IMG/VR virus record: IMGVR_UViG_2851976983_000001
Coordinates: 1 to 64,000 of that record
Reading direction: 5' to 3' (one strand)
DNA length: 64,000 bases
Origin: a virus
Lineage: Duplodnaviria; Heunggongvirae; Uroviricota; Caudoviricetes
The notes below the pieces were generated by a model. It did not search any database, had not been told where the DNA came from, and saw only the letters and a list, made by a program, of their open reading frames with translations. Below are positions 51,710 through 51,868 of this stretch, piece after piece. Both the position numbers and the translations under genes were made by a program. Position 1 is the stretch's first letter, and each line of letters starts with the position of its first letter.

Positions 51710-51792
51710 CACAGCGCTGAACGGTTTGGCGACATTTGCGGAGTCTTTCCGTTCGGACGGTGGTGGCGAACTCCAAACCGTTCAGCGCTGTG
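51710..51792. repeat. 20-bp perfect inverted repeat with about 43-bp spacer, abutting tRNA 3' end
   Basis: CACAGCGCTGAACGGTTTGG (51710-51729) and CCAAACCGTTCAGCGCTGTG (51773-51792); inner hairpin CCGTTCGGACGG. Confidence 0.7.
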
Positions 51793-51793
51793 T

Positions 51794-51868
51794 TGGCGAT
51801 GGTGGGTGGACTCGAACCACCGACCAGTTGATTAACAGTCAACCGCTCTACCACTGAGCTACACCATC
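51794..51868 (-). tRNA. tRNA-Asn (anticodon GTT)
   Basis: Hand-folded cloverleaf: acceptor GATGGTG/CACCATC, D-arm GCTCAGTGGTAGAGC, anticodon stem GTTGA/TCAAC with loop CTGTTAA, T-arm GGTGGTTCGAGTCCACC, discriminator G, encoded CCA. Confidence 0.8.

Follow-up and report, generated by a model that had tools for sequence, protein, structure and literature searches.

A conserved hairpin closing the tRNA island of SSU5/pHCM2-like phage-plasmids, a candidate RNA processing and boundary element

Background

Escherichia coli RNase III needs a helix of two turns (~20 bp), and stems that it processes are known from the 16S and 23S rRNAs, the R1.1-type sites of phage T7, the precursor of the phage T4 tRNA cluster and the maturation of DicF, the enzyme taking part in the processing of the last two. 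The T4 tRNA cluster also yields small stable RNAs of unknown function, species 1 and 2 (rnaC/rnaD), which are stand-alone RNAs of ~120-140 nt released by processing. Mohanty and Kushner reportedly described in 2010 E. coli genes of the leuX type in which a terminator hairpin directly follows the CCA, PNPase or RNase P being responsible for its removal, and 3'ETS-leuZ is a conserved RNA in the trailer of the last tRNA of a tRNA operon, ending at the operon terminator. GOLLD and ROOL are large RNAs of phages that occur close to tRNA islands, and the linker of GOLLD sometimes contains tRNAs (PMC12286853). Here we describe a long hairpin, called hairpin A, that abuts a tRNA-Asn gene in positions 1 to 64,000 of the IMG/VR record IMGVR_UViG_2851976983_000001 (Caudoviricetes); this whole stretch of 64,000 nucleotides is referred to as the window.

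Comparison of related elements shows a helix whose pairing is selected at the RNA level, that has a fixed place after the last tRNA and that stands at the start of a constant 3' module. From these observations we infer the boundaries of a transcript, a nuclease and any role of a motif in the hairpin loop. Our preferred interpretation, to which we would give a probability of about one half, is that the hairpin is an RNA processing and boundary element that closes the tRNA block and opens the 3' module.

Like the RNase III processing stems, hairpin A is a helix of about two turns between functional RNAs of one presumed transcript, in a phage with co-transcribed tRNAs; unlike them, it is conserved in stem and loop motif beyond the needs of RNase III, it starts 1 nt past the CCA, and its cleavage is here only postulated. 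With the leuX-type genes it shares a stable hairpin placed right against the CCA encoded in the last tRNA, a hairpin whose removal is required for 3' maturation. Unlike theirs, hairpin A is not an intrinsic terminator: it has no U-run, being followed by AUAGACA, it is not listed by the terminator scan, and the real terminator lies ~75 nt further downstream. As described, T4 species 1 and 2 are likewise structured non-tRNA RNAs within a phage tRNA cluster, whereas the hairpins studied here abut the CCA and share a common base. The GOLLD/ROOL-like traits of the locus are a covarying phage RNA of >500 nt adjoining a tRNA island (a leader of ~700 nt with 115 pairs) and tRNAs placed between conserved parts; it differs in giving no covariance-model match to E 10 and in belonging to phage-plasmids of Enterobacteriaceae. 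Like 3'ETS-leuZ, the 3' module is a conserved trailer RNA of the last tRNA that ends at the operon terminator; unlike it, the module has a 20-bp 5' stem, and no target was found for it in the window. No description of the hairpin, the 3' module or the leader was found in Rfam 15, in the records examined (including the P1 RefSeq record) or in the SSU5, pHCM2 and P1 ban literature searched, a search that did not cover the P1 genome paper.

The tRNA-Asn gene and hairpin A

The region examined in the window has the same sequence as p503829_100 (NZ_CP025870.1), a 100-kb E. coli plasmid of the pHCM2/SSU5 phage-plasmid group, whose RefSeq annotation contains no coding sequence (CDS) between 51047 and 52616. 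An earlier reading of the window, made from the letters alone (the sequence-only reading), had described this 1.5-kb stretch as a non-coding hub, and the annotation agrees. ARAGORN reports a single tRNA over the whole 64 kb, an Asn(gtt) in the hub, and Rfam places it in its tRNA family (RF00005; 76.2 bits against a gathering score of 29; acceptor stem GAUGGUG/CACCAUC). Since its 3' end reads ...CACCATC-G-CCA, the CCA is encoded. Both programs therefore accept the cloverleaf, and the call of a tRNA-Asn(GTT) with an encoded CCA holds. The tRNA-Asn itself is ordinary and already annotated. When it is compared with host tRNA-Asn genes, as had also been suggested, the best E. coli chromosomal match covers 57 nt at 81%, so the element's tRNA is not a copy of the host gene.

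The repeat search found the inverted repeat as the sequence-only reading had described it, with arms of 20 nt (51710-51729 and 51773-51792) that are 100% complementary, a 43-nt spacer and a sole nucleotide, base 51793, separating the CCA from the stem. We estimate that chance would produce ~6e-6 perfect 20-bp repeats with spacers of <=100 nt per 64 kb. A scan of the whole window places hairpin A among the two strongest inverted repeats, the other lying 500 nt off in the same non-coding stretch, with a third within 500 nt. The spacer, in which a smaller hairpin had been noticed, contains smaller hairpins in the predicted fold (GUUCG...CGAAC enclosing CC/GG), and folding of the 93-nt stretch on the tRNA-sense strand gives -44.3 kcal/mol against -22.6 +/- 3.2 for shuffled sequences (z = -6.85; 0/200 shuffles as good).

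To follow the hairpin among relatives, 83 related loci were gathered using the neighbouring ligase gene as an anchor, together with annotated records, and these yielded 25 distinct hairpin versions; a scan of genome contigs contributed just three loci. Over the 20 stem positions of the 25 variants, 97.2% of cells form standard pairs on the tRNA-sense strand, compared with 20-44% in slid controls in which the 3' partner was moved by one to three columns, and two pairs have changed on both sides (C-G/U-A and A-U/G-C), compensatory changes that keep the stem across some 75 loci. The two strands are not equivalent: the tRNA-sense strand has 27 G.U cells, whereas its complement has 6 and a lower pairing of 93.0%. 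Pair 20/76, for instance, is U.G in 23 of the 25 variants and U-A only in the window/pHCM2 lineage and in locus L060, which makes the perfect repeat a derived state of the window lineage. As judged from these substitutions, the conserved feature is a helix that would work only as RNA or as a single-stranded nucleic acid of tRNA polarity.

The sequence of the hairpin is conserved unevenly. In the stem, 11 of the 20 pairs are invariant. The hairpin measures 72, 74, 75, 77, 78, 79, 81 or 83 nt among relatives, and the loops of four or five clades cannot be aligned with each other apart from the motif GACUCCGC, which occurs in 24/25 distinct variants and is missing only from the degenerate L071. 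Small inner hairpins are predicted in the loops of most clades, with folds that are not uniform. In three of four clades the loop of a short GAC/GUC mini-hairpin holds UCCGC; the predicted fold contains this mini-hairpin for two of them, and for the window clade it is our reading of the sequence, the window's predicted fold being different there. A coding role was rejected, both for a 50-aa antisense open reading frame (51683-51835) and for others: because hairpin lengths differ by non-multiples of three and the loops are unrelated, no frame is conserved. A degenerate tRNA-Tyr, suggested by the tRNA-Tyr gene found at this place in relatives, was also rejected, ARAGORN being negative and the hairpin coexisting in relatives with tRNA-Tyr, where it stands after tRNA-Ser.

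tRNA islands and the constant 3' module

Among relatives, between zero and three further tRNAs lie between tRNA-Asn and the hairpin. The islands consist of Asn alone (30 loci), Asn-Tyr-Thr-Ser (30 loci), Asn-Ser (8 loci), Asn-Thr-Ser (3 loci) or an Asn body with a GTG anticodon (1 locus). The hairpin is intact in 71/73 loci, and in 63/73 the base of its stem lies 1-2 nt past the CCA of whichever tRNA comes last (Ser in 40, Asn in 22 and the Asn body with the GTG anticodon in 1); in the other loci, hairpin A comes after a second hairpin type and tRNA remnants. That this distance is fixed regardless of tRNA identity is expected of an element of RNA processing or transcript architecture, and there is no obvious explanation for it at the DNA level.

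Downstream, the hairpin, a conserved tail and an intrinsic terminator (Table 1) span a constant 167-182 nt across 42 distinct versions, with complete divergence among relatives past the terminator. A total of 631 PLSDB plasmid records, from Klebsiella, Escherichia, Enterobacter, Salmonella, Citrobacter and Cronobacter, contain both hairpin and tail, with no feature annotated at the hairpin among the PLSDB matches listed. The sequence-only reading had considered that the repeat might be absent from all related elements, and these 631 records clearly show otherwise. Within 5,426 E. coli genomes, the locus is found at 247 places in 245 genomes, all on plasmids and none chromosomal, and no E. coli chromosomal match to the hairpin was found. 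A pattern scan of IMG/VR returned 118 matches, 82 of which are attributable to chance; all real ones are SSU5-like, two of them representing new variants, and that scan found no hairpin outside the SSU5-like family.

Several relatives carry altered tRNA genes in this region. The locus with the GTG anticodon (L074:9118-9192) retains the tRNA-Asn body with a single anticodon change from GTT to GTG (His). Upstream of position 8890 in L010, the 5' two-thirds of the tRNA are deleted, so that the leader is fused to the T-arm, and the hairpin is intact. A Thr-like tRNA of 130 nt with a large insertion is present at L073:8934-9063 (Rfam tRNA, 44 bits), and a tRNA-like sequence at L072:~8939-9125 has an acceptor-stem pair around ~170 nt; these two genes may be intron-containing or disrupted tRNAs. 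Rfam matches near threshold to STnc100 (33-43 bits against a gathering score of 47) lie in the Thr-Ser spacer of SSU5-like relatives (L003:3120-3289, minus strand) and just upstream of tciA in P1-like elements (L208:2726-2845; L207:2169-2289), and matches to Ysr251 elsewhere in relatives score 43-76 bits against a gathering score of 100.

A structured leader with related hairpins

Upstream of the tRNA island, a promoter-like element lies directly past the stop codon of the upstream CDS and is conserved in 17/17 clade representatives (alignment columns 100-130). A primary transcript starting there would measure ~965 nt. Its first ~700 nt form a non-coding leader, highly conserved and present in 805 PLSDB plasmid records, for which the RNAalifold consensus of the 17 clade representatives contains 115 pairs with 99.2% of cells paired. 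Changes on both sides affect 15 pairs, compared with 7.2 +/- 1.6 in shuffled alignments (0/500 reach 15) and 0-7 in slid controls, and many invariant G.U pairs fit the minus strand only. The compensatory changes fall in the local helices 9, 10 and 13. In the three long-range helices, by contrast, only one side of the pairs varies, helices 1, 5 and 7 having no double substitutions, and a single global fold of the leader is therefore not established.

Two of the local helices resemble hairpin A. When the covariance model of hairpin A was run unfiltered over the 64 kb, the only further significant loci were hairpins C (27.7 bits, E ~1.4e-4) and D (24.8 bits, E ~7e-4), both on the minus strand of the same transcript; these hits are weak and the calibration of the model was shortened. 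The base of hairpin C (CACAACGUUGAG.../...CUCAACGUUGUG) is common with the base of hairpin A in relatives (CACAGCGUUGAG.../...CUCAACGCUGUG) and is near-identical to that of hairpin A itself. In spite of the weak model hits, we take hairpins A, C and D to be probable paralogues. Hairpins of another type, B (CACAACAGGUAAGAGCA.../...UGCUCUUACCGUUGUG), lie directly against tRNA-Thr or tRNA-Asn in relatives, and the hairpin-A model finds them there and in a P1-like plasmid. Type B also has compensatory variants (AAGAGCA/UGCUCUU and AAGAUCA/UGAUCUU), and AAGGGUA/UGCCCUU pairs through one U.G; because a loose pattern search for this type returned mostly noise, the clear instances are used, and in a qualitative sense only. 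Hairpin A thus seems to be one member of a hairpin family with stems of 19-25 bp, the shared base CACARCG.../...CGYUGUG and a location directly after tRNAs or tRNA remnants and within the leader.

Neither the leader nor any of the hairpins has a match in Rfam 15, for which the locus was searched to E 10 together with several relatives and P1, and the whole window at the gathering score; the only models that pass are tRNAs and a cspA element elsewhere in the window. Weak matches to miRNA precursors were set aside, as they reflect nothing beyond the shape of a long hairpin. A Pfam search of seven neighbouring small proteins for an RNA-binding partner returned nothing significant.

Short motifs recur in these structures. 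Motifs of the type GAYUCC occur in the loops of hairpin A (GACUCCGC), hairpin C (UGAUUCCAC) and hairpin D (CAUCCCGG or GACUCCCGG) and in the leader block 52033-52048 (AUGAUUCCAU). They resemble the GANUCC of the tRNA T-arm, and may reflect either a common binding motif or descent from tRNA. That leader block is invariant in the 17 clade representatives and is a copy of a dispersed 14-mer, ATGATTCCATACAT (a 16-mer with CC), of which the window holds five copies against 0.52 expected (0/100 shuffles reach five). One palindromic pair of these sites (47017-47047) lies ~100 nt upstream of a tyrosine recombinase gene, and the 14-16-mer looks like a dispersed operator comparable to the C1 operators of P1, or like recombinase-binding arms.

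Relationship to phage P1

The element's tRNA-Asn is ~91% identical to the tRNA-Asn of plasmids of ~90-100 kb, the size of P1, including the P1-like L207, and homology with the P1-group plasmids ends at the 3' end of this tRNA. In the annotation of P1 (L208; NC_005856, 68.6-70.3 kb), trnA(Asn) and trnT(Thr) lie downstream of the C1-repressed promoters P1ban/P2ban (operator Op72) and of a 'dicF-like region', and upstream of tciABC, trnI and ban. An nhmmer profile of the SSU5-type leader matches the 5' block of the P1 leader collinearly (E ~2e-7) as well as a hairpin C-like element (E ~9e-5), E-values that are relative to a very small search space. P1 carries type-B and type-C hairpins (CACAAC...GTTGTG) right after trnT and after tRNA remnants; hairpin A itself and the tail are absent from P1. 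As judged from these matches, the hairpin family and one leader block are common to two otherwise unrelated phage-plasmid families, and the P1 copies belong to a repressor-controlled early operon. The hub thus resembles the leader of the P1 ban operon (Pban/Op72 - trnA - trnT - tciABC - trnI - ban) in its homologous 5' block and in the CACAAC...GUUGUG hairpins after tRNAs, and differs from it in that the P1 transcript runs on into coding genes whereas the hub transcript terminates. Identity with DicF was rejected, as Rfam gives no DicF match to E 10 in P1 or in the window locus and the 'dicF-like' stretch of P1 lies upstream of the shared block. The plp and upl CDSs of P1 lie antisense over the hairpin array and may deserve re-examination.

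We advance tentatively a broader interpretation of these relationships, in which hairpin A is one arm of an undescribed structured RNA/tRNA operon of ~1 kb whose modules (the 5' leader block, tRNA-Asn and the hairpin family) are common to SSU5/pHCM2-like and P1-like phage-plasmids and form, in P1, the leader of the C1-repressed ban operon. Such an operon would be an enterobacterial counterpart of GOLLD and ROOL, its tRNAs set between conserved 5' and 3' domains, with repeated arms of ~20 bp whose GAYUCC-type loops may bind a common factor.

Proposed function and alternative explanations

Among the roles that the sequence-only reading had offered for the long stem, a processing signal fits the evidence best, since a sense-strand RNA helix has been kept and abuts the CCA of the last tRNA; the cleavage step itself we infer. 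The locus would be a non-coding operon consisting of a promoter, a structured leader, a variable island of one to four tRNAs, the hairpin, the tail and the terminator, the last three forming a 3' module of ~180 nt with the hairpin first. Because a stable 20-bp stem 1 nt past the CCA would block the exonucleases that mature tRNA 3' ends, an endonuclease would have to act, and the two-turn helix would be its entry site. The enzyme would most probably be the host RNase III, whose substrate length of two helical turns is matched by 20/20 pairs in hairpin A, and which is favoured because the stems of the family all measure 19-25 bp and because of the T4 tRNA-cluster and DicF precedents. Cleavage in the stem would detach the 3' module from the last tRNA, whose remaining trailer, short and single-stranded, exonucleases would trim to the CCA; cleavage would also free the 3' module, and possibly the apical part with GACUCCGC, as separate RNAs.

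It should be emphasized that several observations weigh against this interpretation. Phage SSU5 retains only the 5' arm of the hairpin and half of the loop, followed by an unrelated insertion, and so lacks the 3' arm and everything downstream; L070 is truncated as well. At least one phage thus grows without an intact hairpin. The two covarying stem pairs mostly separate clades and may reflect few evolutionary events, one clade (L034, L036, L066, L072 and L073) bears two to three stem mismatches, and the promoter-like element falls below the threshold of the promoter scan because it matches just 8/12 consensus positions. RNase III as the nuclease is a guess that rests on stem length and precedent, and its weak sequence specificity leaves the 11/20 invariant stem pairs and the invariant loop motif unexplained.

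This conservation of loop motif and stem sequence, for which processing does not account, keeps two other explanations in play. The first, which we regard as possible and yet doubtful, holds that hairpin A is an arm in the 3' domain of one large multi-domain RNA of the GOLLD/ROOL kind, with the leader as 5' domain and the tRNAs as variable linker, the loop motif making tertiary or intermolecular contacts and processing being secondary. The leader does covary as a structured RNA and contains two similar long arms, with GAYUCC-type motifs that are similar in our reading of the cmsearch alignment, and the number of tRNAs varies between constant 5' and 3' parts, an arrangement reminiscent of the linker tRNAs of GOLLD and the position of GOLLD and ROOL near tRNA islands (PMC12286853). 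However, Rfam models, those of GOLLD and ROOL included, do not match, the long-range helices vary on one side only and do not establish a global fold, pairing between leader and 3' module was looked for and none was found, host RNase P should cut at the tRNA and so split the RNA, and Yersinia plasmid pMT1 and SSU5 retain one part without the other. An unlikely explanation is that the 3' module acts in trans as a small RNA (sRNA) derived from the tRNA trailer, like the 3'ETS of leuZ, in which the stem protects the 5' end and either GACUCCGC or the invariant tail sequence ACGGCAGACGUUCUUAACCAU is a seed on host or phage mRNA. The constant length of the module, its strong terminator after a U-rich stretch and its invariant single-stranded motifs are what such an sRNA would display, yet SSU5 does without the module and neither loop motif nor tail has a complementary site in the 64-kb window beyond the locus itself.

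Two further explanations would deprive the hairpin of a function in RNA. It is very unlikely that the hairpins are selfish or neutral repeats, duplicated along with tRNA genes and merely tolerated: apparently paralogous copies do lie by tRNAs and tRNA remnants, some copies are degenerate (L071 and the L034 clade) and SSU5 manages without the hairpin, but compensatory and wobble changes have kept the stem while the loops turned over, the loop motif is invariant, and the hairpin is retained in 71/73 loci and in 631 plasmids of six genera. A DNA-level element, whether a cruciform, a single-strand initiation site, a recombination site or a relic of integrase attachment at a tRNA 3' end, is largely refuted and the least probable of all. 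The perfect repeat in the window plasmid, a tyrosine recombinase gene ~4.8 kb off and junctions in or beside the hairpin in SSU5, L070, L060 and L075 would suit it. The origin-type cruciform that the sequence-only reading had considered is nevertheless unsupported, as most relatives have the ancestral U.G rather than a perfect repeat (23/25 variants are helices with U.G that fit one strand only), the cumulative skew falls monotonically over 50-54 kb with no GC-skew switch, there is no AT-rich block (GC 0.43-0.48), and there are no iterons, the sole tandem repeat being two copies of 8 nt, though no search was aimed at DnaA boxes. An attachment-site relic finds no support either, given a tRNA-Asn that is not host-like and the 0 chromosomal copies in E. 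coli, while the 43-nt spacer is unlike the core sites of tyrosine recombinases, the junctions fall at several differing positions, and the 1-2-nt distance from the CCA has no rationale in DNA.

Clinical Enterobacteriaceae commonly harbour phage-plasmids of the SSU5/pHCM2 and P1 types, which carry resistance genes, and phage tRNAs are currently discussed as tools of counter-defence. The tRNAs of these elements do not stand alone; they are embedded in a conserved and unannotated unit, presumably a non-coding operon, with a structured leader, capping hairpins and a constant 3' module. Our preferred interpretation, in which the hairpin is a processing and boundary element, offers a concrete account, open to testing, of how tRNA islands in phages come to be expressed, matured and remodelled, the RNA boundaries staying fixed while individual tRNAs between them are acquired or lost, and the leader is a candidate for a new large structured RNA with related modules in the well-studied phage P1. 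Should the hairpins prove to be RNase III sites and nothing more, the finding would be modest; if they are arms of a large RNA or sites that bind a factor, they would represent a new class of RNA in a tractable model system.

Other features of the hub and the window

Coordinates of the features are collected in Table 1. The core GGGGCCGAAGCCCC occurs twice in the hub (51135-51148 and 51619-51632; direct repeat family D1), where the sequence-only reading had placed two terminators sharing it. Both hairpins are real, and the one at 51616-51635 scores as a minus-strand terminator; the copy at 51135-51148 also forms a hairpin, at the opposite end of the hub, but does not appear in the output of the intrinsic-terminator scan. 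Overall, the observation made by the sequence-only reading is borne out in full.

Table 1. Features of the non-coding hub and related sites in the window (positions in the window)
Feature	Position	Strand	Basis
Second GGGGCCGAAGCCCC hairpin copy (AAAATGGGGC/GCCCCATTTT), far hub end	51130..51153	.	D1 repeat, inverted repeat I22
Intrinsic terminator AAAGGGGCUUCGGCCCCUUUUUU, presumed end of non-coding transcript	51610..51635	-	Terminator scan: stem 51635-51616 then T-run; kept in relatives
Conserved 3' tail (AUAGACA..CGGCAGACGUUCUUAACCAU...CACUUUUUU.AGCGCAAA)	51636..51709	-	Alignment of relatives
Hairpin A: 20-bp stem and apical region folding into 1-2 small hairpins in most clades	51710..51792	-	Repeat search, folding, covariation/strand test
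Loop motif GACUCCGC (GCGGAGTC on plus strand)	51738..51745	-	Alignment of 25 distinct variants
tRNA-Asn(GTT), encoded CCA, discriminator G	51794..51868	-	ARAGORN; Rfam 76.2 bits; RefSeq-annotated
Non-coding leader, ~700 nt, candidate large structured RNA	51869..52578	-	Covariation; no CDS annotated
Invariant leader block ATGATTCCATACATCC, copy of dispersed 14-16-mer, possible operator	52033..52048	-	Invariant in 17 clade representatives
Hairpin C, in leader: 19-bp stem CACAACGUUGAGG.../...CCUCAACGUUGUG	52117..52231	-	Helix 13: 19 pairs, 4 with compensatory change
Hairpin D, in leader: 22-nt arms giving a 25-pair helix, 43-nt loop	52303..52389	-	Helix 10: 25 pairs, 3 with compensatory change, 99.3% paired
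Promoter-like TTTACT-17 nt-TAAGAT, directly past upstream CDS stop codon	52585..52613	-	Sequence read; presumed transcript start near 52578
14-mer ATGATTCCATACAT sites	40986-40999, 47017-47030 / 47034-47047, 52035-52048, 53058-53071	+, + / -, -, -	

Between the two GGGGCCGAAGCCCC hairpins, positions 51309-51447 of the plus strand hold a good sigma-70 promoter (TTGACG-17-TAAGAT) and, ~100 nt further on, a strong terminator of the same strand (51408-51437 plus a T-run), and could encode a candidate sRNA of ~100 nt. This stretch has weak Rfam matches to Phe_leader and ctRNA_p42d; its full-length match is confined to the pHCM2-like subgroup, most relatives matching only from ~51611 on. Rearrangement junctions cluster at the hub locus, which is the edge of a variable region. 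The 3' arm of the hairpin is lost in SSU5 (L001) and L070, divergence begins directly after the hairpin in L060 and L075 and after ATAGACATTACGG in L080 and L084, and pMT1 (H169) keeps only the first ~510 nt of the leader, adjoining caf1R. Elsewhere in the window, positions 37035-37453 of the plus strand match the cspA thermoregulator over its full length (185.7 bits; gathering score 78), which points to a cold-shock gene of the cspA type, together with its regulatory 5' untranslated region, on the phage-plasmid.

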